From a virus: 64,000 nt of DNA. The position numbers and the translations under genes are program-made. How positions within the stretch are numbered: the first letter of the stretch is position 1; the number at the start of each line of letters is the position of its first letter. The notes beneath the pieces are model-generated. The model did not search any database. It was not told the origin of the DNA and was given only the letters and a program-made list of their open reading frames with translations. Shown here piece after piece: positions 1-51,580 of this stretch. The stretch spans positions 3,203 through 67,202 of the IMG/VR virus record IMGVR_UViG_3300037091_000121; one strand, given 5' to 3'.

Positions 1-651
1 GGTCAAAGGCGCAGCCCATCGTTGTTTAGCGGCCGGTAGACGGCGTTGTATTTCCGCTGTGTATGCTGCGATACGTTGGGTGTTAATAGGGTCCGGGTGC
101 GCCGAAAGCCAACCAATCGCAGCGTCGTATCGCACAAGCTGCTGGTCCATATCCGACAGCTCTGGTGTTCCGCTTACCTGCAACCCATCATCAGCCGATC
201 CAATCCATCGCCATCGCAGATACTTGACACCAGGCACCAGGAATGGCGGATTCCCCAAGATGGAGTCCTCGGAAGCAGGCGGGTTCAGGATCAGGCTTCG
301 CCCTTCAATCGCATACTGGGTTGGTGTCCCCGGCTCTGCTGAACGCCAGTTAATCGTCCCGCCAGAGACATTTGTCGTATTTAACGAAATAGCATATGTA
401 GATGTAGGTTTCAACTGGTAGTGATTATATTCAACCCATATCATCCAAGCGAGGTTCCTGGGCAATGGATACTCTCTTTGGCCGGCGACCAAAAGTATGT
501 CGTCGTCCTCGATTACATCCATCTGAAGTTCGGAAGCCAACCAAACCAAGCTTGGATTGATAAAGTGGTCTAGCTCAAGCGCAGGGACTTCGTTGACGGT
601 AGGATTCCCGATAAGCAGTCGTAAAGTTCCGCGTAGTTGATCGGCTGTCAT
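1..651 (-). CDS. Head-tail adaptor-like virion protein (partial, runs off window edge)
   Basis: ATG at 651 with AGGAGG RBS. Translated by hand as MTADQLRGTLRLLIG...LVAGQREYPLP...WRSAEPGTPTQYA, which resembles the C-terminal domain of 1414-3396 (LVPGVQEYVMP...WRNEVPAEPLYWA). Confidence 0.65.
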   Translation of the reverse strand, partial: MTADQLRGTLRLLIGNPTVNEVPALELDHFINPSLVWLASELQMDVIEDDDILLVAGQREYPLPRNLAWMIWVEYNHYQLKPTSTYAISLNTTNVSGGTINWRSAEPGTPTQYAIEGRSLILNPPASEDSILGNPPFLVPGVKYLRWRWIGSADDGLQVSGTPELSDMDQQLVRYDAAIGWLSAHPDPINTQRIAAYTAEIQRRLPAAKQRWAAPLT

Positions 652-708
652 TCGGTCCTCCTTTCCTCATTACATGATACCCTGAACTGGGCAGACTTAC
701 AACCTACC

Positions 709-1002
709 TCACTTCTTACCCTTCTTGCCACCCTTGTCACCAGAGCCCATAATCCCAAACGCCTTCTCTACTCCACTGTTATACTTATGCTTTAGCTTGC
801 TCGAATCAGGCTGCTTCACTTTTGCCGGAGCAGCAGGGCCTGAAGCGCCGAACCCACCTTTGTTAGACGCTCGGTCTTTATTCATCGCAGCGAAGGCATT
901 GGGGTCGAACTTGTGCAACCCACCACCAGCCACAGGTTTTGGCATCGCCTTTGGTTTCGGCATGGGCTTCGGAGCCATTGGTTTGGGCATCGGTCCTGGC
1001 AT
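709..1002 (-). CDS. Small Pro/Lys-rich hypothetical protein
   Basis: ORF with AAGGAGG RBS, in the minus-strand virion operon. Confidence 0.6.
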   Translation of the reverse strand: MPGPMPKPMAPKPMPKPKAMPKPVAGGGLHKFDPNAFAAMNKDRASNKGGFGASGPAAPAKVKQPDSSKLKHKYNSGVEKAFGIMGSGDKGGKKGKK

Positions 1003-1014
1003 TGTCGTTCCTCC

Positions 1015-1398
1015 TTATGCAATCTCTGCGTCAAAGCGATAAACATGACCCGTCAGATGCACGTCAATCTCCGCCTTAAAATGCGGAGGGAATCCCGTAA
1101 TATGCTTACGAATCGCCACTTCACCAGTAGTCACTGGGGCAGCATTATCAAAAATGATCGTTGAGGCGCCGCCAACAAGAGGTCGCTCCGCATGCAGGGT
1201 ATGAGCCACCCCGTCCACAGAGAAAGCCGCGTCAAACCAGAATACGTCCCCCGCCTTCAGACCCACCTTGCCGCTAGTAACCGGACCCTTACGAACCGTA
1301 TCCAGAGAAACCGTCCAGTTCTTCAAGTTGATCTTGGGAAGCGTGATGCTTTGGGCCGCGCCACCCAAAAGCAGTTTCAGAATATCCAATGGGTTCAA
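1015..1398 (-). CDS. Hypothetical protein
   Basis: ORF track; tightly packed in the operon. Confidence 0.6.
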   Translation of the reverse strand: MNPLDILKLLLGGAAQSITLPKINLKNWTVSLDTVRKGPVTSGKVGLKAGDVFWFDAAFSVDGVAHTLHAERPLVGGASTIIFDNAAPVTTGEVAIRKHITGFPPHFKAEIDVHLTGHVYRFDAEIA

Positions 1399-1413
1399 GA
1401 TATCTCCTTAAAC

Positions 1414-3396
1414 TTAGAGCGCGATGCTCTTCCTTGCTGAATCCTCAGTCGCTGCCACCATTCCAGCATCGAACTCGGCCTTCAGTGCTGTTGCACGTTG
1501 GGTTGCTACTACTGAATCGGGAAAACACGCCGACCAGAGGTAAGCCCCATACATCACCACTAACCTATAGTATATCGAAGGAAGCTGGTCGGGTCCAGCG
1601 GTCGTAATGCTTGGTGGTGTAGCCTTCCTTCGGATCGTCAAGTTAGGGGCCTGCGACACTGCTAATGCCGAAGGCGCGGGCCTGATAACGAAGTGATTTC
1701 CGCCGTAGTGTGCCCAATAGAGCGGTTCAGCAGGCACTTCATTACGCCAGTCCTCACCTAGCCTACGCCACTGCTCAACGTCGCCCTTCTCCAGTAACCT
1801 GTTAGTTCCATACTGAACCCAGACGATCTCAATGGCATCGGCAGGCATCACGTATTCCTGAACTCCAGGAACAAGGGTTACTTCCGTGCTATCAGTGACC
1901 ACATAGTACCGGATCTGGCGATATATCTGCTGGCAACCCCAATCTAAGTAGATATCCACGACTGAATCAGGAATGACCTGGGTGTTCCGCTCATTGGTCA
2001 GCTCTCGCCAAAGGTTACGCATCGTTACCGTGGCGGCAGGTTGAACAGTAACAGGAACTCCAGTCTGACCCGCGAGGATGCTGCTAGAGTTCAGCAAGTC
2101 TGCGAAGTTCTCCTTGCAAATACTTGCTGATATCAAGGCTCCGCCGCCAGCCACAGCGTTCAGGGAGAAGTCTCCTGTGCCCGCACTTGTGAACGGGATA
2201 GCAGTAAGAGTGGTGTCATCAGCCGCTGCTGGCATATTCAGGTATCTGCCTACTCCGGTAGTGAAGAAGTCGTTACACTTGAAGGTGTTGTCAACCCAAG
2301 TCTGACCCCCAGGACCGGTAACTGTAGCAGGGGAAGTCTGGCGATATGCGATGTCGTATAAAGTGTTATTACCGAAGATGCAGCTCTCTATCGTGCTAAA
2401 CTCTCCGAAGTGAAGACTTGTCGGAGTAATATCCAGGCCATACTGGGAAGCACCCCAGAGGACACTATTTCTCAAGATCGCACCAGTGCTGTTGGCATTG
2501 ATCTGAACACCTACCGCACCGCCATCCACAACGCAGTAACTCAACCTAATTGGACTGCCACCCTCCACGCTAACACCAGCCTGCCCTGCCCCTGCGTCTA
2601 TTCGGCAAAACTCTAACAAGTTTCCGCCAGTATCCCTAATCGCCGCTACGTTCGTTCCGCCCTTTATCCAGCACCTTCGGATTATCTGCAATGCGCTGAT
2701 TTCAAGAGCGTATCCGGCTGTAGATGTAGCGTCAAAGATACAGTTCTCGATAATCTGACCCAGTGCTCCGGCTGATACCGTAGCTCCGGCAAAAGAACCC
2801 GATGTCATAAGGTTCTTGAACACAGTCCACTCAGCAGTCCAGTTCCCAACCTTAGCCAGATGGGCTATCCCTCCGTCACCACGAACCAAACTGTATCCTT
2901 CAACACGAACGTAATTCTCTTCAGCTCCATTGATACCTATATTGCTGCCGATCGTACTGGCGTATGCCGTAACCACCCCCGCAGAGTTAGTGTCCCTTAC
3001 CCAGATTATGTTTCCAGGGACCACCACCGAGAATTCATATGGTTCCAGAGATGAGACCGCTGTCCCCTTGGCTCCACCAGCTCCTCCTACGTTGGCTGTC
3101 TGTCCGGAGAAAGAACCCGTGGCTCTGTCTACTACAACCGCATTGCTGCTAGTCCTGGTGATAATCTGGTAGAGGTTGCTGTTGACGTGAATCCCGTTCC
3201 CTTGCATCGAAACAGTGAAACCGCCAGTGGCCGAAGTTATACTTGTAGTCCCTGTTCCGGCAGCATCTGTTACAGTTAAAATAGGAGTCGCTGACTGGCT
3301 AAAGTCTGTGCCTGCGAACGAAGGGCTAAATCCTACGCCGTTGGCTAGGGCTCCGTCTGGCCTAATCTCATAAACGGAATCTGCAGTCCAGGCCAT
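1414..3396 (-). CDS. Right-handed beta-helix tail/fibre domain fused to a head-tail adaptor-like C-terminal domain
   Basis: Pectin-lyase-like Gly/Asn/Ile repeats. The N-terminus is paralogous to 62427-63896 and the last ~200 aa resemble 1-651. Confidence 0.65.
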   Translation of the reverse strand: MAWTADSVYEIRPDGALANGVGFSPSFAGTDFSQSATPILTVTDAAGTGTTSITSATGGFTVSMQGNGIHVNSNLYQIITRTSSNAVVVDRATGSFSGQTANVGGAGGAKGTAVSSLEPYEFSVVVPGNIIWVRDTNSAGVVTAYASTIGSNIGINGAEENYVRVEGYSLVRGDGGIAHLAKVGNWTAEWTVFKNLMTSGSFAGATVSAGALGQIIENCIFDATSTAGYALEISALQIIRRCWIKGGTNVAAIRDTGGNLLEFCRIDAGAGQAGVSVEGGSPIRLSYCVVDGGAVGVQINANSTGAILRNSVLWGASQYGLDITPTSLHFGEFSTIESCIFGNNTLYDIAYRQTSPATVTGPGGQTWVDNTFKCNDFFTTGVGRYLNMPAAADDTTLTAIPFTSAGTGDFSLNAVAGGGALISASICKENFADLLNSSSILAGQTGVPVTVQPAATVTMRNLWRELTNERNTQVIPDSVVDIYLDWGCQQIYRQIRYYVVTDSTEVTLVPGVQEYVMPADAIEIVWVQYGTNRLLEKGDVEQWRRLGEDWRNEVPAEPLYWAHYGGNHFVIRPAPSALAVSQAPNLTIRRKATPPSITTAGPDQLPSIYYRLVVMYGAYLWSACFPDSVVATQRATALKAEFDAGMVAATEDSARKSIAL

Positions 3397-3625
3397 CAGT
3401 GGCCTTCCCTTCGGATGCGAAGCATATTAGAGGTGGCTTGGGCTGACTCAAGACTACAGCAGGGATGGAATTCAGCGGGGGAACCAAACTCATTGGCTCG
3501 TTCAACGGCAAGCTCTCGGCTGGAGTAGACGCCAATGAACCGATATGGAGAGACAGTCTCTACGGCTATCCACTTACCCGCCAGTGACCATCCCCACTCG
3601 GTAGGCATAGTGGCCTTCCTGTCCA

Positions 3626-4147
3626 TCAAGAGATGTCGAATGCCAGAATTTTCAACCCCGCTGCAAAGGAGGCTGTTCCACTTACGTCAGTCTGGGAGAA
3701 CACAACTCTCCACGCTGACAGACGGGTCCCAGTGGTCACAGTCTCTCGGTAGGGGGGATTGAATGGACCATTCATCACTACGCCTGCATTCAGTTCCGTT
3801 CCTCCTACAGACCCGCTATCTATGAAGACCTTCTCTGGCGACTGTAGTGGTATGACGCTCTCCAGAACTGCCTCTTGAACGAATGGTGCAGCAACAGATG
3901 CCGCCTGATTGCCAGCGACTAGATTGAACCTAACCCGAGTGTTCCACGTCACGCCGTCTGTGGTATCCTGAACCTTCACGTCAAGGAAGTCGGTTGCACC
4001 CGTAGCGGCAGCAGTCACGTTGAGCTTGAACTTAAGCATATTCGCCCGAGACAAGTCCATCGGTGCCAACAAATACGTCAGCTTGATGCCTGTGCCATTC
4101 GTGGTGGCAGGGAGCGTGATGCCGTCTATTTTTCTGCCGCCTATCAT
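3626..4147 (-). CDS. Putative virion structural protein
   Basis: Beta-rich ORF (LDVKVQDTTDGVTW) in the virion operon. Confidence 0.55.
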   Translation of the reverse strand: MIGGRKIDGITLPATTNGTGIKLTYLLAPMDLSRANMLKFKLNVTAAATGATDFLDVKVQDTTDGVTWNTRVRFNLVAGNQAASVAAPFVQEAVLESVIPLQSPEKVFIDSGSVGGTELNAGVVMNGPFNPPYRETVTTGTRLSAWRVVFSQTDVSGTASFAAGLKILAFDIS

Positions 4148-4467
4148 TGGCTGTGCGTCCCTTCTACCAAACGGGCCTCTCTGTCAGCAGTACGAGACTT
4201 CAAAACCTCAAGCGCAGTTTCTAGATGAGTTATTGCACACTCATTCTCAAGGCACTTAAACTCGCTATCCTGGTAGAATTCTAATCTTTTTAGAGCAGCA
4301 GTTATTACGTCTTCTACAAAAGCCCCATTAGGTCCCTTTCGTTCATCACCTCTTCCCAGAGGCCCGTTCTGCCATGAGATTGCAAACCCGGTTCCGTAAG
4401 TGCAACCTCCAGCCGGATTACCGTTCTCATCCCTCCAGTTATGATACCCCAAAACAAACCTATTCAT
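4144..4467 (-). CDS. tad1: Tad1-like (Thoeris anti-defence) immune-signal sponge
   Basis: WQNGP...NGAFVEDVI...RLEFYQDSEFKCLENECAITHLETAL...RTADREARLVEGT matches the Tad1 pattern FQxG...GV..DLL..RL..FQ..F..RENA.ALTH.EEAL....R..DR..R.V.GT (from memory). Confidence 0.75.
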   Translation of the reverse strand: MNRFVLGYHNWRDENGNPAGGCTYGTGFAISWQNGPLGRGDERKGPNGAFVEDVITAALKRLEFYQDSEFKCLENECAITHLETALEVLKSRTADREARLVEGTHSQ

Positions 4468-4991
4468 TCTGCGTCCTCGCTAGGTGTCTTCCCACCCCTG
4501 CAGTTGCAATCCACCGCTACTCTCGTTCTGACTGGCTTCGGACCCTCCGTGCAGTCGTTCACATCCACGGCCTTCGGATACTCCTTGCCTGGCCCGAACC
4601 CGAAGATAGTGCAGTCCCAGAGGCCAAGGTTCTTGCCGTAGTCAATGAGTTCCGTGGCAGGCTTCCTCAAGTCGCCCATCTCCTGCGTCACGATATCGAA
4701 GGGTTTGGGAGTCTGATAACCATAGCCCAGATCCTTGTTTCGCATCACACACCGCCTCTCATGTCCATCTCGGTCTGTCCCAACTGTTTTTGTATAAGCG
4801 CTTATCAACCCAAACTCCGTCTTGACGAGTGGCGAAACGCATGGGCACACTCTCCCCGGTCTTCCCATCAAGAACGATAGGTCCCATAAAGACGGCGCTC
4901 AACAGTGGCCTTCTCCGTAGCGAGGATGGATCATCCTTCGTCTAGCTGGACTGCGCACTTGGCATCACCCCTCTCGGTATTACAAAAGCAT

Positions 4992-5024
4992 GGGTGGAGG
5001 GAGGACATACCCTCCACCCTTTTT
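4992..5024. terminator. Intrinsic terminator-like hairpin
   Basis: GGGTGGAGGG-N8-CCCTCCACCC followed by a T run on +. Confidence 0.55.
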
Positions 5025-5036
5025 GGTTAATCCTTA

Positions 5037-5681
5037 TTAGGCGTAAGTGTAACCATCAGCGGGACTCACTACAGACTTGCCCCCCAGGCCGGTCACCGTA
5101 ACATCCACCAGGCCCGCAACACCCGCAGGGCTTGTAGTGGTAATCTGCGTATCGCTGTTAAGGACGAAGGTGGCAGCCGCAATGGAACCAAAGCTCACAG
5201 CCGTTGCGCCAGTGAACCCCGTGCCAGTAATCACGACACTCTCTCCGCCTGCCTGTCCACCAGTAGCGACGCTCAATCCAGTCACCACCGGCATCGCTCC
5301 ACCAGTCGTAGGGACAGTCGTATTCAGAGCCTTAATCTTGTCCGCACCGGCCTGAACAGCGGCCTCTGCCGCCTGGACACGAGCCACCTCGGGGGAAAGG
5401 TCAACTGACGGACCCACCTTGGCGAGGATAGCCTGCACAGCCGAATCAATCTCCACAAACGCAGCCGTGTTAGAAGTCTCAAGTGCCGTAAGGGCCGTAT
5501 CGAGGTCTGTAATCGTCATTGCCATTTCTGTAACTGTTCCTTCTAGCGCGACGAGGCGCTGGTCGATTGAGAGCAGGCCAACAGCCATCTCTGCCGCCAT
5601 CCGCTCAACCAAAGCTGTCAAATACTCACTGTCTTGGTGCATCCGAAATCTCCCCCTGATAGCAGCGAAGAGATCATTCAC
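5037..5681 (-). CDS. Coiled-coil protein with C-terminal IPT/TIG (Ig-like) domain
   Basis: C-terminus PVVTGLS..GG.AGGESVVITGTGFTGATAVSFG...DTQITTTSP...VDVTVT is a typical IPT/TIG domain. Confidence 0.75.
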   Translation of the reverse strand: MNDLFAAIRGRFRMHQDSEYLTALVERMAAEMAVGLLSIDQRLVALEGTVTEMAMTITDLDTALTALETSNTAAFVEIDSAVQAILAKVGPSVDLSPEVARVQAAEAAVQAGADKIKALNTTVPTTGGAMPVVTGLSVATGGQAGGESVVITGTGFTGATAVSFGSIAAATFVLNSDTQITTTSPAGVAGLVDVTVTGLGGKSVVSPADGYTYA

Positions 5682-6236
5682 CTCTTCCCCTTCTTTTTGC
5701 CGTCAGTAGCATGACCGCTGCGGCTTACACCACGTGCGTCAACCTTTTTTTGTAGAACTGGGACTCATTGTGATCGTGACGGCTCCGCCAGTTGCAGTAG
5801 AGGCTCCACTGTTTCGTGTGGCTGAAGTTGGGGAGTTAGAGGCAGCCCCAGTAGCTCCACCTGCGGATTGATTACGTCCTAACGCGCCTTTCGACCCTTG
5901 ATTTTTTGGTTTAATTGGCTTGTTTATTTACGTTTCATCCGCTTCTCGCCTAACTTCTCGGCAGCTGGAAGCCCCTCCTTATTATATCCTAACTTCTTGG
6001 CTCCTGCTACCGCATTGCCTTTTCCGGATTTCAGGGCGTCGCGAACCCCCTCCGCCTTCTCTCCGGCCTCTGCCTTCTTCACCCAAGGCTTCTTCGCTTG
6101 GGTCTTCATGGCTTTCTGGAAGTCTGACACTTATCCACCCCTCCCGCTTTTATAGCTGTCAATCCACAACAGAATCATGGGCACAAAGCAGAGGCCTCCC
6201 AGAATCAGAAGTATCAGCATCATCTCACTTCTCCTT

Positions 6237-7604
6237 CTACAAGCGGGTCCAGCGAACTGAGTAATAGTCCAGAATCAGATCAACGTTATCAGTTCCAGAG
6301 CTGCGTTGCACCGCGAAGAACGGCTGGAAAGCCATCGCCGCCGTCAGGTTCTTCATGTTCATAGTCCCAAGGAAGATGTCAAAAACCTCAGTGTTCTTCG
6401 GGTTATTGGCATCCACATTGGTCATCCAGAAACACACGTTAGTCGGATCGCTGAAGTCAATCGTGAAGTCATAATACTGACCAGCTACCATTGCGACTGG
6501 ACCAAGCACTGGGTTGAACGCCGTGTTAACCAGCGTTCCGTCATTGGTCTCCAGCGTCACGTTCATATTACCAGCCAACTTGAACCAAGCATACTCCGAG
6601 ATGCTGGAAAGAGTGGCGTTGAAGGCCGTAGCAACCCCGAAGACAACGATATCGTTAGACCCTACCGCTGTAGTAGATCCAACCTTCAACCTCGCCTCAA
6701 AGAACGGACCGTCCCCAATGATAGGGTTTGCAACGTCCCACTTGGCGAATGCTAAATTGTCACCCCACCCTAACCCGGCAGTCGATACCCCACTAGTTGC
6801 GTCCAACTGGATCAACGCTTCGCCGTTCCGCGCTCCGTTGCCAGGGTTAGTCAGGTTGAACTTGGCAACCGGCGTTCCTACGCCAGATGAAAAACCAGAC
6901 AGGTTCCCAACAAGAGTTCCGTTGAGTCCAGTAGTGGCCGGTGCCGTAGGAGTAAACGAGACCACCAGATACGGGCCGTAGATTCCAGGAGCCGCAAATG
7001 TTCCCGTAACACTCTGGAGAAACGTGATTACATCTCCAGCAGCCACCGTAGTTCCAGCAGCCAGTGTCAAGGGATAGTTCACGTTGGCTGTCAGGTTGGC
7101 GCCACCATTAATAGCCGTTGCGGTGGTGTCGGTAGTGTTCGCATGAGCCGCCACTGACAGCAGGGTGCTGGCACCGTTGTTCTTCAAGGAGGTGACTGTG
7201 AAGTAATTCGTCACCGACTGCGTAACAACAGGCGAAACACCTTTAGGCGTGACGTATCCGAATGTTACGCCTGTAATAATACCAGCCGCAGGCGCTGTCC
7301 AGTCCGTAGTCGTCTGTGCAGCTGCCGTTACGGTCAGGGCGTTAGCACCAGGAGTGTCCGTCTGGTTATCAATCAGCAACTGCAATGACTGGGTTGGGCC
7401 ACCACCAGCAGCAGGAGGGGGGCCGATGAAGTCATTGAACTCATGGCACTGTGTTCGGTAAGTATCCCTAAAGGTAAAACCCTCAACTTCCTTACCAGCC
7501 TTCGTCCCTAGTGCGTGCTTCCGCTTGTAAGGGCCACGAACGCCAGTTCCCGAGATTAGCCTCAAGTGACCCGGCCTGTTGCCAGTTCCTGCCTGTCCAG
7601 CCAT
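6237..7604 (-). CDS. Virion structural protein (beta-rich)
   Basis: 455-aa Thr/Gly/Ala-rich ORF downstream of the capsid gene, GAGGAGG RBS. Confidence 0.6.
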   Translation of the reverse strand: MAGQAGTGNRPGHLRLISGTGVRGPYKRKHALGTKAGKEVEGFTFRDTYRTQCHEFNDFIGPPPAAGGGPTQSLQLLIDNQTDTPGANALTVTAAAQTTTDWTAPAAGIITGVTFGYVTPKGVSPVVTQSVTNYFTVTSLKNNGASTLLSVAAHANTTDTTATAINGGANLTANVNYPLTLAAGTTVAAGDVITFLQSVTGTFAAPGIYGPYLVVSFTPTAPATTGLNGTLVGNLSGFSSGVGTPVAKFNLTNPGNGARNGEALIQLDATSGVSTAGLGWGDNLAFAKWDVANPIIGDGPFFEARLKVGSTTAVGSNDIVVFGVATAFNATLSSISEYAWFKLAGNMNVTLETNDGTLVNTAFNPVLGPVAMVAGQYYDFTIDFSDPTNVCFWMTNVDANNPKNTEVFDIFLGTMNMKNLTAAMAFQPFFAVQRSSGTDNVDLILDYYSVRWTRL

Positions 7605-7642
7605 TTCTAGACCTCCTCATTCGCTCTGGGGATTGTATACCC

Positions 7643-8617
7643 CTACACTAACTTTACGTTACGCTTACTCCAATGCCTATCGCCCTTGGTGCTTGTGTCG
7701 TTGGGTAAATCGAGAAGCAGATGGCCCCACGTCTTCCCCGTAAGTATCTTCTGGATAGTTCCTCGGTCGGAACCATAAGCATCCGCGATCTGTTGGGCAC
7801 TCTCGGTTCCGATGTTGTATCGGTCCACTATCTGCCTAACCTTTGCTTCGGTTAGCATGTGCCTAACCTGACCGATCTTGCGATGCTCTCGCTTCTCGTA
7901 GGCAGACTGCCATTGGCATTTATCAGAGCAGAAACGCCTCTTCGCGTCCCTTATCTCCATTATACTTCCACAACGCTCACACGGCCTCTGATCCGTCGGC
8001 TTGGAGGCAAACCAATGATTGTAGCACTGGTCAACGCTTCGATAGCAAATACGGTTACAGTCATCTTCTCGACAGATACGGGCAGGCTTCGAAACCTTCT
8101 CCGTCTTACCTTCAACTTCTACGAACTCCCTACCAATGCAATCACCGCGCTTGTTAAGAAGCCTGATCTCGTCGTAAAGCACCTTCACGATAGGCTGATC
8201 GGCAAGAGCCCAACCTCGCTTAACTCTTCCATCGGCGTGATTACCTCGAAGCGAAAGGAACGTAACCACGATCTCTGCCTGACGCTTCTTGGTTACCAGA
8301 TACGGCAAAACTTGCGGTAGAACGTGCCTTATCTGATTACCACCCAGTTTCCACTTATAAAGGGCCTTACGACCCTCTCTGCTCTCCGCTCCTTCGTCAA
8401 TACGTCCATTACCCGTTAGTCGAACCAATTCCTCAAGTTGACCAACCCTGGTATTAGACGCATCTATTACGGCAACCACAGCTTCTCTGACATTCAATCC
8501 AAAAGGCTTTCGAAGGTGCAACGCTATGCTACCCTCGGCCTCCAGATACATCGCAACAGCCCGAGCCTCACCCACATCCATAACCTTGTCAGATACAACG
8601 TTTTCCTTGTATGCCAC
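7643..8617 (-). CDS. Free-standing LAGLIDADG-like homing endonuclease with C-terminal Cys-rich and HTH domains
   Basis: AVAMYLEAEGSI (degenerate LAGLIDADG) and LPQVLPYLVTKKRQAEI, plus CxxC clusters and an HTH tail; has its own sigma70-type promoter. Confidence 0.75.
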   Translation of the reverse strand: MAYKENVVSDKVMDVGEARAVAMYLEAEGSIALHLRKPFGLNVREAVVAVIDASNTRVGQLEELVRLTGNGRIDEGAESREGRKALYKWKLGGNQIRHVLPQVLPYLVTKKRQAEIVVTFLSLRGNHADGRVKRGWALADQPIVKVLYDEIRLLNKRGDCIGREFVEVEGKTEKVSKPARICREDDCNRICYRSVDQCYNHWFASKPTDQRPCERCGSIMEIRDAKRRFCSDKCQWQSAYEKREHRKIGQVRHMLTEAKVRQIVDRYNIGTESAQQIADAYGSDRGTIQKILTGKTWGHLLLDLPNDTSTKGDRHWSKRNVKLV

Positions 8618-8640
8618 TGTATACCCTCCCTTGTATAGAG

Positions 8641-8669
8641 AGTATACACGGATCGGCTGTATTTGTCAA
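8641..8669 (-). promoter_or_regulatory. Sigma70-type promoter for the endonuclease gene
   Basis: TTGACA-N17-TATACT on the minus strand. Confidence 0.8.
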
Positions 8670-8696
8670 GACACTATATTGTGGTATTAAACGCTC

Positions 8697-10069
8697 TCAC
8701 AACGAGCCCGCGACCCCAGTTGGGTGGGTAATCCCATGGCTTTCCCTGTAGCTACCCGTCAAAACCAAGTTGCCGGTCGCAAGGCCATCGGTTTCCCGCT
8801 GAAGAGAGATAGGCCGACGATTGAACCAGAGAACAGCAGTCTCTTTCTTATCGGCCATAAGGAACCAGCGACCATCGTTGGTCATATGGGTCATTACGAT
8901 AACCTGAAGATCGAGAGCGCGAATGGTGTTGGGGTCGTTGTCAGCAGTGAAGGGCCTCTGAATCGAGTTCACGATCCGCTGGGCATTGAACCGATCGTCG
9001 GTGCCCACCACGAGCCTGACAGGCTGAATGGCGAGCTTCCGGCCTCTCTGGTCAACCATACCCGAAGACCACTGGTTGAGGAGCGCCTCAAGGCTCTCAA
9101 TGGACAGGTCGGCACCGCTCGAAAGCTGGTTCGACCACGTTCCACCGTCAGCCCGGAAGTGGACCTGGGAGAGCAGGGGATAACCCGTCCCGTTAGCCGT
9201 ATACTGGACAGCCGTGCCGGCGTTGTTGAAGAGGTCCATAGCGTTGACCTCCTGCGTGTAAGCAGCCGCACGAGCAAGCTCTCGACCGAACTCCGGGAAC
9301 ACTCCGTAAAGTTCGTCCTCCATCGCCTCCATAGTGATACGGCACTGGAGAGCATACGTATTGTGGACATACGTGCGCTTCCACGCTTCAGCACCACTAT
9401 CCTGGGCCGCAGGCGCGCCCTGGGCCTTCAGGAAAAACTGGCCAAGACCAGCCATTACCGTCTCGTTCTCCTGGCCCTTAACGGACCCGTCGATACGGTA
9501 AATCTGCTGGAACTGCTTGACAGCCTCGAGCCCAAACCTTCGATCCCCTCGGCTCTTTATCCGAGGGCTACGAGTTTCCTCGCAGATGGGACTATCTCTT
9601 CACCTCATAGAGGTGCGGGGCACTCGTGGAGCTTTCGGCGTTTCTCGTCTACTTGCTCTAGTCTCTGAACCTTCCGAGAATTCCTTCTCGGCTTGGCTGC
9701 GGATTACCATGCCTTTCGGTTTAGGCTTCCCGCAATTCACCCCGTCTTCACTACCGCATCGCTACGGCAGGGAGCAGCTTTAATCCTACTCGTTAAAATA
9801 AACGTGCTCGCCCTTTACAAGGGTTTGGACTATCTCATCACCCGCTATGGGGTGCCGGACGCTCTAGCCTGTATTCAGGTAGTCTCTGAACCTTCCGCAA
9901 TTTATGCGGCTTGGCTGCGGATTGGGATTTCTCCGTTCCCGCAATTCATCCGGTTATCACTCCGGCCTCACGACCGAAGGGCGCCACTTTCAGGGCTACG
10001 CAGCCCTCTTTCGAGCTGATCCGCAACGTTTGCGGTTGTCATCACGCCTGAGGGAATAATCCCAGGCAT
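8697..10069 (-). CDS. Major capsid protein (gpT-like, HK97 fold), three exons: 10069-9998, 9806-9788, 9532-8697; 308 aa after splicing
   Basis: The spliced frame is open (927 nt): MPGIIPSGVMTTANVADQLERGLR|HVYFNEW|LEAVKQFQQIYRIDGS...MAGLGQF...YALQCRITMEAMEDELY. GAGG RBS before 10069. Confidence 0.85.
9533..9787 (-). ncRNA. Group I intron 2 in the capsid gene (255 nt, ORF-less)
   Basis: Core elements GAAUUGCGGGAA, AAUCCGCAGC, GUUCAGAGACUA, GAGAUAGUCC. 5' exon ends in U and intron ends in G. IGS AGCU-GCUC pairs with exon ends GAGU and GGCU. Confidence 0.88.
9807..9997 (-). ncRNA. Group I intron 1 in the capsid gene (191 nt, ORF-less)
   Basis: Same P/Q/R/S core. IGS GUG-GCGC pairs with 5' exon GCGU and 3' exon CAC; terminal G at 9807. 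Confidence 0.88.
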
Positions 10070-10130
10070 ATTGGACCTCTTTCTTCATTATCATCCTGGC
10101 CCTTGGTATGACAGCCAGGGGTTACCCCTC

Positions 10131-10159
10131 TTGACACTTCCGTCATTTCACTGTATAAT
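10131..10159 (+). promoter_or_regulatory. Consensus sigma70 promoter, probably making a leaderless mRNA
   Basis: TTGACA-N17-TATAAT, ATG 6 nt downstream, no RBS. Confidence 0.8.
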
Positions 10160-10165
10160 GCTAGT

Positions 10166-10663
10166 ATGAAAGATACGGAACTAGCTTATGCAGCAGGTAT
10201 CCTTGACGGAGAAGGATACGTCGGTATGGTCTACCGGAAGCCTGGAGCCCGTCTTGTTAGGGCTGATTACACCCTACAAACTGTTATCGGTATGACACAC
10301 GAGCCCACCATTCGATGGCTCTGCGAAACCTTCGGGTTCAACTTCTTCCGAAAGGAACCAAGGCAAGCCCATCACACCGTCGCCTTCTTGGCATCTCTTC
10401 AACACAAGAGAGCCGCTGAATTCCTTCGTCTAGTTCAGCCCTATGTTAGAACAAAGGCTGAACAGGTCTCTCTTGCGATTGAGTTCATCGACGGCCTCTG
10501 CGAGTGGCGTGATAAAGTCGGAGCCAACCGAAAGAGAATACCCGATGATGAACAAGATCGTCGCCACGGATACTATTCCAAACTCCGAGACCTCAACGGC
10601 AGGAAGCGTGGCGATCAATCAGAACCTAACTCTGAAAGAGCAGCCGACCTATATCCTAGATAA
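10166..10663 (+). CDS. Free-standing single-motif LAGLIDADG homing endonuclease
   Basis: LAYAAGILDGEGYV motif and FLRLVQPYVRTKAEQV; inserted antisense to the head operon. Confidence 0.88.
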   Translation: MKDTELAYAAGILDGEGYVGMVYRKPGARLVRADYTLQTVIGMTHEPTIRWLCETFGFNFFRKEPRQAHHTVAFLASLQHKRAAEFLRLVQPYVRTKAEQVSLAIEFIDGLCEWRDKVGANRKRIPDDEQDRRHGYYSKLRDLNGRKRGDQSEPNSERAADLYPR

Positions 10664-10672
10664 ACCCAACCA

Positions 10673-10702
10673 CAATCCCTCTGGTTATAGCCAGAGGGAT
10701 TG
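10673..10702. terminator. Hairpin between convergent genes
   Basis: CAATCCCTCTGG-N6-CCAGAGGGATTG. Confidence 0.55.
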
Positions 10703-10712
10703 TGCCACATCT

Positions 10713-11351
10713 TCAGGACCACATCTGAAGTGCGTCCAAAGCCCCCGTAATCGCGCCGGTATAGAAGGTAGGAATGAACTGAACATAGGCCAGACCGTTG
10801 ATATCACCAGGGCCATTACCAACCACCTGGGTTCCAGTGCTATCCAGACCACTCTGCGGGAAGCCTACGATCCTCACCATTGGGAGAGTAGACACCACAG
10901 CGTTCAGCACATCCACATGCCACAGACCAGAAGCGCTCTTGACGATATTGAACCTATCCATCAGCATCGCCTGGGTAAACACAGCACTCGCCGGCGTGGT
11001 ATGGAAAGCGTTCATGATGTAGGTGGAGGTCGGCTGAAAGGCTGCGAACGCAACCGGGGCTCCAGTAACACCAGTCGCCTTATTACCCGGCTGCCCAAGA
11101 ATGGGGCTAGTCAACTGGGCCATACCAGCGGTGGTAGCTGTAGTGCAAACAGCGATGGTGCCATTCGCGCCATCAACATAGATCAGGTCGCCTACGACAT
11201 AGGACTGTGCAGCGGTCTCTTTGAAGTAGGATTCCGAGACCAATGCGGGGACGTTATTCGGGTCAACTACTTTAGTTCCGTGGTTAGCTGGTTGTGTTCC
11301 GCTCAACGGATAGTCCAGCGTCACGGGGATCAGCAACATTGTTTGGGCCAT
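10713..11351 (-). CDS. Putative capsid decoration/cement protein
   Basis: Lies just upstream of the capsid gene; AQSYVVGDLIY motif; beta-rich. Confidence 0.55.
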   Translation of the reverse strand: MAQTMLLIPVTLDYPLSGTQPANHGTKVVDPNNVPALVSESYFKETAAQSYVVGDLIYVDGANGTIAVCTTATTAGMAQLTSPILGQPGNKATGVTGAPVAFAAFQPTSTYIMNAFHTTPASAVFTQAMLMDRFNIVKSASGLWHVDVLNAVVSTLPMVRIVGFPQSGLDSTGTQVVGNGPGDINGLAYVQFIPTFYTGAITGALDALQMWS

Positions 11352-11436
11352 TATTTCATCTCCTTAAGACACTGGGTTACCCGCTCAAATAGATCCAGGT
11401 ATCCAAATACATTATACGCGATTCCGTCTAGATTGC

Positions 11437-12279
11437 CTACCACTCCCCTTTTCGGCTACCGTGATCCGGGGAAGCTCGAACATCCACCACTTTTCGTCCT
11501 GCGCTTCGGTTCATAGATTCAGCCACATCCATCGCATTCTGAACCTGCGGGATAGAATCGAATGCGCCTGACGGACTGTATCGAAGAACACGGGCAGCAT
11601 AAACCTCTGGTGGAATCTGAACCGCACGACCAAGCTGTCCAACCAACGGCCTGCCGTCGTCATCCATCACATCCTCTGCGCCCTGCGAGTAGAAAGAACG
11701 CAGACGACGAGAGTTAGGTTTCCCATCCACATCCTTGTCTCTAATCCAACGAGGAATCCATCCCGGACGAACTAGCGTCTTCCCAGTTTTCAGGCTAACC
11801 ATTGCTGCCACATCATCGAACTCTGGCATATAGGCAGCCAGTGACATTCGAGCCCGATCCGTGGCCGACATATTCATACCTGGGTTACGAGATTTAGCCC
11901 TAGCCTCGTTGTCCTCGGAGTAGGCCCTAGCCACCTCTTCAAGAGCCATATCCATCGCGTATTTGATAGGGTCATTAGCCTGTTCCTCGGAGATTTTAGG
12001 TTCCTTGGATGGAACAGGCTCCTCGAAATCCTTTGTGTCTCTCATATTCTCACGGTGGAGTTCCACATTCGAACCCACACCTAATTCTTCTCTCATCGCT
12101 GCTGCTGTCTCCTTACCAAACGCGTTCGCCTCGGCCGCTTCATCCGCTGGCATCGCAAGGGAGTGGGCGCTGCAGAACTCGCTAGTTCCCATCGCCCACT
12201 TGTAACACTTCTCCTCGCCATTTCGATAGGAGCAATAGGAATGGCCCTCACACTTCTGTTTGGAGGATGGCTTCTTCAT
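11437..12279 (-). CDS. Head-module hypothetical protein
   Basis: 280-aa ORF with PGWIPRWIR between scaffold and decoration genes. Confidence 0.6.
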   Translation of the reverse strand: MKKPSSKQKCEGHSYCSYRNGEEKCYKWAMGTSEFCSAHSLAMPADEAAEANAFGKETAAAMREELGVGSNVELHRENMRDTKDFEEPVPSKEPKISEEQANDPIKYAMDMALEEVARAYSEDNEARAKSRNPGMNMSATDRARMSLAAYMPEFDDVAAMVSLKTGKTLVRPGWIPRWIRDKDVDGKPNSRRLRSFYSQGAEDVMDDDGRPLVGQLGRAVQIPPEVYAARVLRYSPSGAFDSIPQVQNAMDVAESMNRSAGRKVVDVRASPDHGSRKGEW

Positions 12280-12441
12280 TCCAACTCACCCTCTTCGTCA
12301 TCCTCCAAGCATTCATCCTCCATCCTATGATACTCCTCAAGGCATTTATCCCAAAGATTTCCGTCTACTTCCATGGACACATTAATTGGTATTGCTTGCT
12401 CGGTGGAGTTGTAAGTTTTGCCCCAATCTAGTTCATTCATC

Positions 12442-13410
12442 CTATCTCTTCCCCTTCGACTTATCGATACGCTTCTTGGCTCTCACGTATTCGTCGATGG
12501 TATGCATCCCTCGCTCATCCACAGCATCAAGAGCAGCCATCTCCTCCGGTGCGATGCGAGCTACTCGCTTATCTGCAAGCCAGCGAGAACCTTTCGCATA
12601 CTCGTCAGAGTATCCCCTGTCAGCATTAGATGATTGATCCATACCACTCCTCGATTGCGGAACCAATGATCGGTTCACCGCCGCCCTAGCCGACTTGTCA
12701 TCCAGGTTAACTGCCCTATCCGGCATCTGGTCGGCATCCATCCAAGCCACCAGCCCCAACGCCGTAGATGCAAGCACCTGAGGGCTCTCCAACCATTCAG
12801 GGGGCATACTCTCAAGTTGCTTACGGAACAACTCATCAAACTGGGGATGGTCCATGATGTGAACATAATCAGGAGCCACAGCAGCCAGAGCATCTGCAGT
12901 CTTTTGCGTGGCGTCATCTACATACTTACGCCCAACCAACCCTCGCTGCTGCGCTAATTGGTCCTGTAACGGTTTGGCGATCTTCTCCGCCTCCTCCCGG
13001 ATAGCAGCCCGGAACTGGTCCGGGGTCATCTCCCACATCTCAGGGTCCTGGCCACGCTGCACCGGTTCAGGAATAACGGGTTCCGGTTCTGGAGTAACGG
13101 GCCGAACATTCGGAGGAGCATCGCCAGTATTCGAACCCATCACCGCTGGTCGTGCCCAATCACGGAACCGCTTCGGGTCACGGATTACCGGATCTCCCTC
13201 ATCTGACAGATCAAGGCCGTGAGTAGCCAGCCGATCCTTAAGACCCTTCACACGATCCTGAAGAGCCGATTGAAGTCGGGTTTCGGCTACCTCTTCCTCG
13301 TCTTGAGGTTCTTCTTCTTCGCCCGAATCCCATTCCTGGATGTTTTCTTCTTCTGGCTCCGGTTCAGGGATTGGGTCTTCTTGTTTTGGTCTTGAGAACC
13401 AACTTGCCAT
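12442..13410 (-). CDS. Putative capsid scaffolding protein
   Basis: Acidic N-terminus, helical body, C-terminal TIDEYVRAKK; sits between portal and capsid. Confidence 0.6.
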   Translation of the reverse strand: MASWFSRPKQEDPIPEPEPEEENIQEWDSGEEEEPQDEEEVAETRLQSALQDRVKGLKDRLATHGLDLSDEGDPVIRDPKRFRDWARPAVMGSNTGDAPPNVRPVTPEPEPVIPEPVQRGQDPEMWEMTPDQFRAAIREEAEKIAKPLQDQLAQQRGLVGRKYVDDATQKTADALAAVAPDYVHIMDHPQFDELFRKQLESMPPEWLESPQVLASTALGLVAWMDADQMPDRAVNLDDKSARAAVNRSLVPQSRSGMDQSSNADRGYSDEYAKGSRWLADKRVARIAPEEMAALDAVDERGMHTIDEYVRAKKRIDKSKGKR

Positions 13411-17985: not shown

Positions 17986-18014
17986 AGTATACCAAGGTCA
18001 GGGTTGGTTGTCAA
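17986..18014 (-). promoter_or_regulatory. Sigma70-type promoter (phage-repeated TTGACAaccaaccc motif)
   Basis: TTGACA-N17-TATACT. Confidence 0.8.
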
Positions 18015-26778: not shown

Positions 26779-26837
26779 GGTTATAGTATACAGTCAAGGG
26801 GGTTGATTGTCAAGTGGGTTCGGTCTTGGCGGAGACA

Positions 26838-34985: not shown

Positions 34986-35019
34986 CAACACTATAGTATA
35001 CCTAGATGAGGGTTGGTTG

Positions 35020-35667
35020 TCAATCCCTCAAAATCTCACAACTGCAAACCTGAAACCGTCCATAGCTAGGGCGAAAATCACCCACTCCGACCAGCTTTCC
35101 CGCTTGTGTAAGCACATCCCGAAGCACTTGCGGTTCGATATACTCTGGCGTCAACACAAGGAAGATGACTTTCGCCCTCCAACCTTTCTCAACCGCCGGC
35201 CGCTGCCGTGTGATGCCGTTACGCTGAACCACAACTCGGCGCTGATCGAGATAGCTCCAATCCGAGAGGGTTTTACCCGCCAGAGTGATAGGAGCCAGTT
35301 CGGTTTCCACAATCAGACCTGCTTTGAAGAGATCCATTGCGCTCTTTCTTGGTGAGCGAGGGTCTTGCCGAAACTTGGCTGCCCAAACGCAAGCCATTCG
35401 CAAATACTCTCCCGGCAATGCAATCTCGCCTTTCTCCGTTCGGTATACGTAGCTGTTCACGTTGTCCGACTTCTTGGCATCGCTCCCCTTGGCTGCTTTT
35501 GACTTCTCCTCTACTGCCTCACAGTTCCACCGATGGAATAGAATGGGTGTCGTGCCCTCAACCTCCACCTCGCAGCGATAGGGAAACGCCAAAAGATCCT
35601 CTGCGCCGTTGGAAACCTCCTCCAGCGCTGGCATAACATTACGACCATTCAATTTTGTAGCTACCAT
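35020..35667 (-). CDS. RAMP/Cas7-fold-like RNA-binding protein 1 (Vipr-like), 215 aa
   Basis: VEGTTPILFH, IALPGEYLR and the Gly-rich C-terminal loop VGVGDFRPSYGRF parallel RAMP motifs. Start placed at ATG 35667 (AAAGGA RBS); the ORF-track extension is the repeat array. Confidence 0.75.
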   Translation of the reverse strand: MVATKLNGRNVMPALEEVSNGAEDLLAFPYRCEVEVEGTTPILFHRWNCEAVEEKSKAAKGSDAKKSDNVNSYVYRTEKGEIALPGEYLRMACVWAAKFRQDPRSPRKSAMDLFKAGLIVETELAPITLAGKTLSDWSYLDQRRVVVQRNGITRQRPAVEKGWRAKVIFLVLTPEYIEPQVLRDVLTQAGKLVGVGDFRPSYGRFQVCSCEILRD

Positions 35668-35869: not shown

Positions 35870-35967
35870 AAAAAATAGGCCCATGGTTACACCATGGGCC
35901 TGACGGTAAAGAAGGAGTGTGTTGTGTTAAGCAAGTGGAGTATACCAGATCGAGGGTTGGTTGTCAA
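35870..35967 (-). ncRNA. Promoter-terminator-bounded ~60-nt sRNA with anti-SD core
   Basis: TTGACA-N17-TATACT (35967-35939), then CACTCCTTCTT, then hairpin AGGCCCATGG/CCATGGGCCT + U6. Confidence 0.55.
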
Positions 35968-37568: not shown

Positions 37569-37605
37569 GGGATTGACAACCAAGGCTCATTCCGGTATAA
37601 TATGG

Positions 37606-49015: not shown

Positions 49016-49079
49016 CTTGCGCCTCCTCCAAAACTAGAGGGGTTGACAATCAACCCCCACCCCGGTATACTCCATTGTT

Positions 49080-51512: not shown

Positions 51513-51580
51513 AACCCTATCTTGGGGATTGACAAACAACCCCATTGCCGGTATAACCTTCTACAGTAGGGGTTGCCGAA

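Follow-up and report, generated by a model that had tools for sequence, protein, structure and literature searches.

How do endonuclease genes that stand free in a phage genome, and introns that carry no endonuclease gene, come to be assembled around one and the same capsid gene? The question is raised by positions 7643 to 10663 of a 64-kb stretch of DNA, called the window hereafter, which comprises bases 3203-67202 of a 67.2-kb virus contig of IMG/VR (IMGVR_UViG_3300037091_000121; completeness 61% according to CheckV). Sequence nearly identical to it is confined to peat metagenomes (12 runs, three of which are possibly the source of the window DNA), and the carrier is an uncultured peat phage. 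Here the major capsid gene, located within a minus-strand block of structural genes, is interrupted by two group I introns and flanked by two free-standing genes for LAGLIDADG proteins, E324 on one side and E165 on the other. The locus is an island of homing endonuclease genes (HEGs) around the major capsid gene: an essential gene is bracketed by such genes and lies at a boundary of sequence exchange between strains. As to how the parts work together, the sequences lead us to favour, with middling confidence, a joint mechanism in which the intron pair would probably have E165 as its partner in trans homing, and E324 would be an independent occupant of a slot behind the capsid gene.

What kind of proteins do the two flanking genes encode? 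E324 (7643-8617, minus strand; 324 amino acids) starts with GTG behind a GGAGG Shine-Dalgarno sequence, while E165 (10166-10663, plus strand; 165 amino acids) points away from the capsid gene and runs antisense to the operon of structural genes. Each protein has a single LAGLIDADG motif, and the two are 23% identical to each other. Both match PHROG 5046 (E 6e-21 and 6e-13), which is labelled 'HNH endonuclease', and the C-terminal part of E324 also matches PHROGs with this label; probably, the label of PHROG 5046 hides many phage LAGLIDADG genes. Neither protein is matched directly by Pfam, even at E <= 10; among 51 homologs of E324, 28 match PF00961 (LAGLIDADG_1) and 13 match PF14528. Comparison with proteins of solved structure gives weak sequence matches, of E165 to I-CreI variants (E 2.2e-4) and of E324 to I-MsoI (E 1.5e-5). 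AlphaFold2 models of the two proteins have pLDDT values of 85.5 and 89.0, and the top PDB matches of these models in Foldseek are again I-CreI and I-MsoI, with probability 1.00, E-values of 4e-9 to 1e-7 and target-normalised TM scores of 0.68-0.77. As modelled, therefore, both proteins have the alpha-beta-beta-alpha-beta-beta-alpha core fold of I-CreI. The motif of E165 reads ...GILDGEG..., with E16 and G17 invariant among 31 sequences, and that of E324 reads ...YLEAEG..., where E28, G29 and K110 together with seven cysteines are invariant among 51 sequences. The motif acid is thereby kept in both proteins (E16 and E28), and so is the lysine that is aligned with K98 of I-CreI (K97 in E165 and K110 in E324). 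I-CreI and I-MsoI, which are intron-encoded in organelle rDNA of algae, are homodimeric enzymes with one motif per chain, and they have the fold, the catalytic acid and the K98-equivalent lysine in common with E324 and E165; they differ from these in sequence (15-21% identity) and in that E324 adds further modules to the core. Residues 1-165 of E324 make up the I-CreI-like domain, and this is followed by two Cys-rich zinc-type motifs, C182/C187/C198/H201 (CCCH) and C213/C216/C230/C234 (CCCC), and then by a helical, helix-turn-helix (HTH)-like C-terminus with a faint match to HTH_7 only. When profile hidden Markov models (HMMs) of both LAGLIDADG families were run against all stop-to-stop ORFs (open reading frames) of at least 50 amino acids in the window, E324 and E165 were the only matches.

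The gene between them encodes a protein of the gpT-like Phage_capsid_4 family, which shares 30-36% identity with the major capsid proteins of Roseobacter phage CRP-902, Pelagibacter phage HTVC023P and Planktothrix phage Pag-Yong1. This gene is the sole intron-bearing one of the 64 kb. Rfam model RF00028 matches it twice on the minus strand, at 9809-10011 (63.9 bits) and at 9568-9797 (89.3 bits; the gathering score is 50), and both matches span model positions 1-253, namely the full-length core. Rfam finds no group I intron beyond these two in the window or in the whole 67.2-kb contig, and a sensitive Rfam scan of 6000-12500 gave no further intron remnant near either endonuclease gene. Intron 1 occupies 9807-9997 (191 nt) and intron 2 occupies 9533-9787 (255 nt), both on the minus strand; intron 2 extends 35 nt past the end of the Rfam model and forms an extra 3' hairpin there. 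At both junctions the 5' exon ends in U and the intron ends in G. One guide segment at each junction pairs with the last four bases of the exon, including a U-G pair, to form a P1 of 4 bp, and the directly adjacent part of the same segment pairs with the first bases of the next exon to form a P10 of 3 bp for intron 1 and 4 bp for intron 2. The introns are of the group I type, and their self-splicing is predicted. The first-pass annotation had described both introns as lacking an ORF, and this is borne out: the longest stop-free stretches in any frame are 63 and 82 amino acids, and no endonuclease HMM matches them.

How were the boundaries of the exons placed? A protein search with exon 3 returned 70 homologs, including four uninterrupted proteins of 308 amino acids (P0002-P0005; 84-87% identity) whose N-termini read ...ERGLRHVYFNE(C/I/V)(L/K)EAV..., and the boundaries are fixed because a single splicing pattern alone reproduces these N-termini of the intronless homologs. 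Exon 1 (9998-10069, minus strand) starts with ATG at 10069 and its 24 codons end in ...ERGLR; exon 2 (9788-9806, minus strand) is a micro-exon of 19 nt that encodes HVYFNE and the first base of a Trp codon; exon 3 (8697-9532, minus strand) opens with the last two bases of this Trp codon and holds the stop codon. The joined product of the three exons is 308 amino acids long and aligns without a gap to P0002-P0005, with 270, 260, 260 and 250 of 308 residues identical. Both insertion sites, which are 19 bp apart, fall into the most conserved N-terminal coding stretch (ERGLR / HVYFNE / W). Some other searches gave little: a scan of viral contigs with the single exon-3 protein detected one weak locus only (L006), 22 nt at the beginning of exon 3 have an exact match in 0 viral contigs, and blastn of 7000-12500 against phage records found only short matches to intron cores of Bacillus phages, in five records.

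Are the endonuclease genes regular members of the structural operon, or did they come from outside? In relatives the gene order is up280 - up212 - capsid - down455, the labels giving the lengths of neighbouring ORFs in amino acids. In the window, up212 is located at 10713-11351 and down455 at 6237-7604, both on the minus strand. Gaps in the relatives, calculated from the ends of alignments, are about 20-75 nt between up212 and the capsid gene in all nine relatives that show both genes, against 643 nt in the window, where the gap holds E165; and about 30-60 nt between the capsid gene and down455 in L023 and L029, against 1092 nt in the window, where the gap holds E324. By this comparison, E324 and E165 are free-standing insertions relative to relatives of the same gene order. 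That two free-standing LAGLIDADG genes bracket an intron-split capsid gene, as the first-pass annotation had proposed, is therefore confirmed by fold, motifs and gap sizes.

Relatives tell more about the slot of E324 than about that of E165. Among 53 loci with capsid relatives (L007 and L028 are one contig under two names), HMMs of both endonuclease families detect a LAGLIDADG gene in one, L034; the 17 closest of the 53 were scanned for introns, and none of these 17 reaches the Rfam gathering score, L034 giving 49.8 bits in E-value mode. In the opposite direction, 130 loci with LAGLIDADG relatives were searched with a capsid profile, and six hold a capsid gene of the window's family. In L136, L145, L160, L143 and L109, at most 60 nt separate the capsid stop codon from the start of the LAGLIDADG ORF, which is on the same strand; this is the slot of E324. 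These genes, at about 4950-5450 of each locus, encode single-motif proteins and sit on unrelated contigs; the capsid ORFs in front of them are uninterrupted (304-331 amino acids from one stop codon to the next), and the records of the five loci gave no group I intron match. Thus, the post-capsid slot is used without introns. In L145, a zinc-ribbon module is located at the N-terminus of the protein instead of the C-terminus.

L034 is a different case. Its contig begins at residue 134 of a capsid protein about 51% identical to that of the window, and a homolog of E324 (37% identity over 237 amino acids) follows the capsid stop codon after about 75 nt, again in the same slot; the gene at 813-2045 of this locus has 410 codons and encodes a LAGLIDADG and a Cys-rich part. 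An ORF-less intron at 475-679 (E 9e-11; 0.2 bits below the Rfam threshold) splits the capsid gene at ...IGR / YRESHG..., 64 nt before the stop codon, with a P1 of 5 bp and a P10 of 6 bp. It is close in sequence to intron 1 of the window, yet it is inserted at a different site, and the capsid gene of the window has no intron at the C-terminal site of L034; both sites follow a CGT codon for Arg. A scan of genome contigs for the E324 family gave seven weak loci, none of which was informative. For the E165 family, three close homologs (P0072-P0074) sit on contigs of 930-3476 nt.

Do strains living side by side differ in these elements? Contigs of four peat runs (X4-X7) were compared with the window over 6000-11500. 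Those of X5, X6 and X7 match exon 3 up to exactly 9532, and then diverge from the window for 116-255 nt. The 30 nt visible past 9532 show, in the reading direction of the gene, that exon 3 is immediately preceded by the final 14 nt of exon 2, with a single mismatch; therefore, this is a variant allele without intron 2, at the predicted junction, and such a natural DNA allele backs the exon boundaries only, not splicing. Upstream of its exon-2 stretch, the variant has a sequence whose last base is G and in which the conserved ERGxR-x-V motif is not encoded. Judging from the 30 visible nucleotides, another intron is probably inserted in the variant allele, at a point 5 nt downstream of the intron-1 site. 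X5 and X7 further contain a separate contig piece whose match to the window is limited to the core of intron 1 (9826-9887), the sequence on either side of the match being unlike; these samples therefore hold a group I intron that is akin to, but not the same as, intron 1. Taken at the level of sequence, at least two, and probably three, different insertion points of introns lie within 24 bp across the co-occurring strains.

The remaining differences between the strains are not spread evenly. Hardly any fall into E324 or into the 3' two-thirds of the capsid gene: record 10 of X5 has two differences over 6660-9175, record 28 of X7 has none over 7435-9102, and records 20 and 21 of X6 have none. 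Strain differences cluster at 9090-9532 and 10707-11400, and this patch encloses the introns and the slot of E165; the variant departs from the window at 10707, just outside the slot, with an unlike end of 52 nt. The introns and the E165 slot are central in the variable patch, as is expected of a gene-conversion tract. A window-type contig of X4 joins the start of the capsid gene to E165 (10059-10516) without any difference. Co-occurrence of each endonuclease with each intron had been proposed as a check of their pairing, and the outcome is divided: E324 does not follow intron 2, and for E165 the variable patch gives a hint only. There is a second patch of strain differences at 6300-7232, inside down455, with 4-8 differences per contig of 300-470 nt; E324, which adjoins this patch, is identical between the strains.

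Is a link between LAGLIDADG genes and group I introns seen across the family? With a profile built from E324 and three close homologs, 19,569 representative proteins are matched at E <= 0.001, and 93 of them also at E <= 1e-30; at least 284 relatives were confirmed by tblastn in IMG/VR contigs. The first-pass annotation had called LAGLIDADG enzymes outside inteins less usual in phages than HNH or GIY-YIG; this fits a review (PMC3984707), but the number of relatives just given stands against it. A group I intron match at E <= 1e-3 is present in 21 of the 121 viral records that hold LAGLIDADG relatives (counted without L076 and without L139, which is the same contig as L057). In none of the 21 is the nearest intron match more than 1490 nt away from the endonuclease gene; 12 records have this match overlapping the gene, and 6 have it on the opposite strand. 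In L084, L100 and L099 the LAGLIDADG gene is overlapped by weak intron matches of opposite strand (E 1e-6 to 4e-7), and in L097 and L142 such a match, again of opposite strand, is 40-46 nt away from the gene. An endonuclease gene that lies antisense within or next to an intron thus seems to be a recurrent feature of the LAGLIDADG family, and E165 is likewise antisense to its neighbouring introns. In L163, an unrelated IMG/VR contig, a head gene (phrog_1357; region 462-4308) with at least three group I intron matches is preceded by a double-motif LAGLIDADG gene and followed by a GIY-YIG gene.

How, then, might the locus work? During co-infection, E165 would cut the N-terminal capsid stretch of competing phages that lack the introns, and either or both introns would shield the genome of the carrier from E165. 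Repair of the break would then copy E165, the introns and the flanking exon sequence together, which corresponds to collaborative, or trans, homing. A typical LAGLIDADG recognition site is about 20-22 bp long, and the two insertion sites are closer together than one such site; therefore, one enzyme could be blocked by either intron. E324 would home alone, by intronless homing, most likely with a target at or near the 3' end of the capsid gene or in the spacer downstream of it, and would not be tied to the N-terminal introns. We favour E165 as the partner of the introns because of its position, the pattern of strain differences and the habits of its family: E165 starts 97 nt from the start of the capsid gene and about 170-190 exon-nucleotides from both insertion sites, while E324 is about 915 exon-nucleotides from the nearest of them.

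Several points weigh against this mechanism. No intron match was seen in 100 of the 121 viral records with LAGLIDADG relatives, and hence most members of the family may home without introns, E165 possibly too. Co-occurrence of E165 with the introns comes from a single population contrast, and contig cover of X5-X7 is absent at 10048-10599, a gap that is not taken as a loss of E165 from the variant. E324 and the intron-2-less allele are linked by abutting or overlapping contigs of like depth, with no bridging contig. As for the target itself, a 24-bp stretch over both insertion sites has 7 of 12 symmetric pairs, which places it in the top 2% of such stretches in the gene; this pseudo-palindrome gives a weak hint of a homodimer site, and its significance is lost when one corrects for having chosen the stretch.

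It might also be that endonuclease genes and introns have no functional link, each being an independent selfish element that gathers beside a conserved essential gene; the introns would then be immobile relics, or would have been moved by recombination without help from E324 or E165. We regard this as possible though rather unlikely. HEGs are described as clustering around essential phage genes, capsid genes included (PMC10448857), and the many intron-free records of the family and the use of the post-capsid slot without introns agree with mere neighbourhood. On the other hand, an intron lies within 1.5 kb of the endonuclease gene in every one of the 21 records with an intron match, the clustering of at least two, probably three, insertion points within 24 bp suggests a targeted site, and the strain-variable patch holds both the introns and the slot of E165.

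Could the insertion sites owe their clustering to the enzymes in another way? The 24-bp R-HVYFNE-W stretch might be a hot spot of intron insertion because it is a target of the flanking LAGLIDADG enzyme or enzymes. In the window, the two introns would act as a double lock: the target would be a roughly palindromic site with the 19-nt micro-exon at its centre, and each intron would take away one of its halves. ORF-less introns would then spread by the immunity that they confer against cleavage of the capsid gene in co-infection. In a bolder form of this idea, the two single-motif proteins, one encoded on each side, may pair as a natural heterodimer on an asymmetric site. We find this reading doubtful, though co-occurring strains do have introns at two, and probably three, points of the stretch.

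The first-pass annotation had gone further and supposed a double collaborative homing, in which E324 and E165 each recognise one insertion site and each intron blocks its own enzyme. It is true that two enzymes and two ORF-less introns meet in one gene, that the window holds no other LAGLIDADG ORF or intron, and that the E324 homolog of L034 accompanies an ORF-less capsid intron. But the E324 slot is filled beside intron-free capsid genes in five other contigs, the intron of L034 is at a different, C-terminal site, and E324 is unchanged beside an allele without intron 2. Two non-overlapping targets are hard to fit into sites 19 bp apart, and the distance of E324 from the introns adds to the difficulty. 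Thus, collaborative homing as such stays a reasonable proposal for a locus with ORF-less introns and adjacent free-standing genes, while the assignment of one enzyme to each intron is not supported by the comparison of relatives and strains, and we consider it quite unlikely. That one or both proteins would have given up nuclease action, to help the ORF-less introns splice as maturases in trans or to regulate the capsid operon by binding DNA, is highly improbable: bacterial LAGLIDADG proteins with maturase-like activity and domesticated folds are described (PMC3984707) and E324 bears zinc-type and HTH-like modules, but both proteins keep the motif acid and the K98-equivalent lysine, both introns score as complete catalytic cores, and extra DNA-binding modules are normal for phage HEGs (PMC10448857).

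How would the two genes be expressed? Each has a consensus promoter of its own, as had been noted on first inspection. A sigma-70 promoter on the plus strand at 10131-10159 (TTGACA-17-TATAAT, 12/12 consensus) precedes E165, and another on the minus strand at 8641-8669 (TTGACA-17-TATACT, 11/12 consensus), between the capsid stop codon and the start of E324, precedes E324. Near-consensus promoters of this type number 11 in the window against 0.17 expected, and therefore they represent a general promoter type of the phage that is not special to E324 and E165. At 10154-10168, only 6 nt separate the end of the -10 element of E165 from the ATG, and a Shine-Dalgarno sequence is missing; thus, the mRNA of E165 is predicted to be leaderless or nearly so. 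A hairpin with a 14-bp stem (10671-10704), located where the convergent genes E165 and up212 end, is terminator-like on the minus strand. The spacers of seven of the nine other near-consensus promoters open with variants close to a CAACC-type stretch, A[AC/TC/AA]CAACC (ACCAAGG at 37573), which is usually followed by GGTATACT or GGTATAAT. These promoters are found at 17986-18014, 26785-26813, 34995-35023 and 35939-35967 on the minus strand and at 37573-37601, 49043-49071 and 51529-51557 on the plus strand, and from their sequences they look like an extended promoter family specific to the phage; the promoters of E324 and E165 are without the CAACC-type spacer. Elsewhere in the window, an ORF of 214 amino acids (5037-5681, minus strand) has a C-terminal IPT/TIG domain (E 3e-9), and its product is probably a surface-exposed structural or decoration protein.

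To what extent is such an arrangement already known? In collaborative homing, the site targeted by a free-standing endonuclease is also that of an ORF-less intron, and cases are reported from a cyanophage, from T3/T7-like phages and for mobE of T4 (PMC3984707, PMC10448857, PMC2790892). The pairs of F-CphI and the psbA intron in cyanophage S-PM2, those in T3/T7-like phages, and mobE with the nrdB intron in T4 likewise have a free-standing endonuclease gene beside a gene with an ORF-less or endonuclease-defective group I intron. However, their enzymes are Endo VII-like or HNH enzymes while those described here are single-motif LAGLIDADG proteins, and here two enzymes are combined with two introns 19 nt apart in a major capsid gene, with cleavage only predicted. 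HEG islands, in which essential genes including those of capsid morphogenesis are bracketed by HEGs, were described by Barth et al. (2023), who also suggested that neighbouring HEGs may cooperate and placed HEGs at boundaries of genetic exchange (PMC10448857), which is to be compared with the mosaic patch around the introns and the E165 slot. That work is centred on T5orf172/GIY-YIG and HNH enzymes, and at least 8 of its 20 LAGLIDADG genes are intein-encoded (PMC10448857), whereas both genes of the present locus are free-standing.

Introns in capsid genes are known from Tuc2009 and LittleE (PMC3706429). In the mycobacteriophage LittleE (Pope et al., 2013), a group I-type intron of the major capsid gene is accompanied by gp14, an I-CreI-related LAGLIDADG gene on the opposite strand, just as E165 is antisense; the C-terminus of gp14 is common to HNH proteins, and the C-terminal part of E324 also matches PHROGs labelled as such. 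The endonuclease gene of LittleE is inside the intron, as that report gives it (PMC3706429), while here the introns are ORF-less and both genes are outside the coding region. As to micro-exons between group I introns, a literature search gave no phage case among the papers listed, one of which, on a fungal mitogenome, mentions such exons. The literature already has HEG islands, collaborative homing, and I-CreI-like genes together with introns of capsid genes; what is new is the combination of two free-standing single-motif LAGLIDADG genes with two ORF-less introns around a 19-nt exon, with the recurrent LAGLIDADG slot behind the capsid gene, with the extension of an I-CreI-like core by zinc-type and HTH-like parts, and with the coexistence of strains that differ in their introns.

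What does the locus mean for the phages that carry such genes? I-CreI-like LAGLIDADG genes are common in environmental phages and recur right after the major capsid gene, a pattern that is masked by the PHROG label, and single-motif enzymes with zinc-type and HTH-like modules are of possible interest for meganuclease engineering. The locus is set apart from the characterised cases by its LAGLIDADG enzymes, by introns less than one recognition-site length apart, and by strains of differing intron content that live together in the peat samples. As a small system provided by nature, it would allow one to ask by what route a free-standing endonuclease and an ORF-less intron arrive at a common target, and this sharing is the step that has been proposed to precede the birth of mobile introns.

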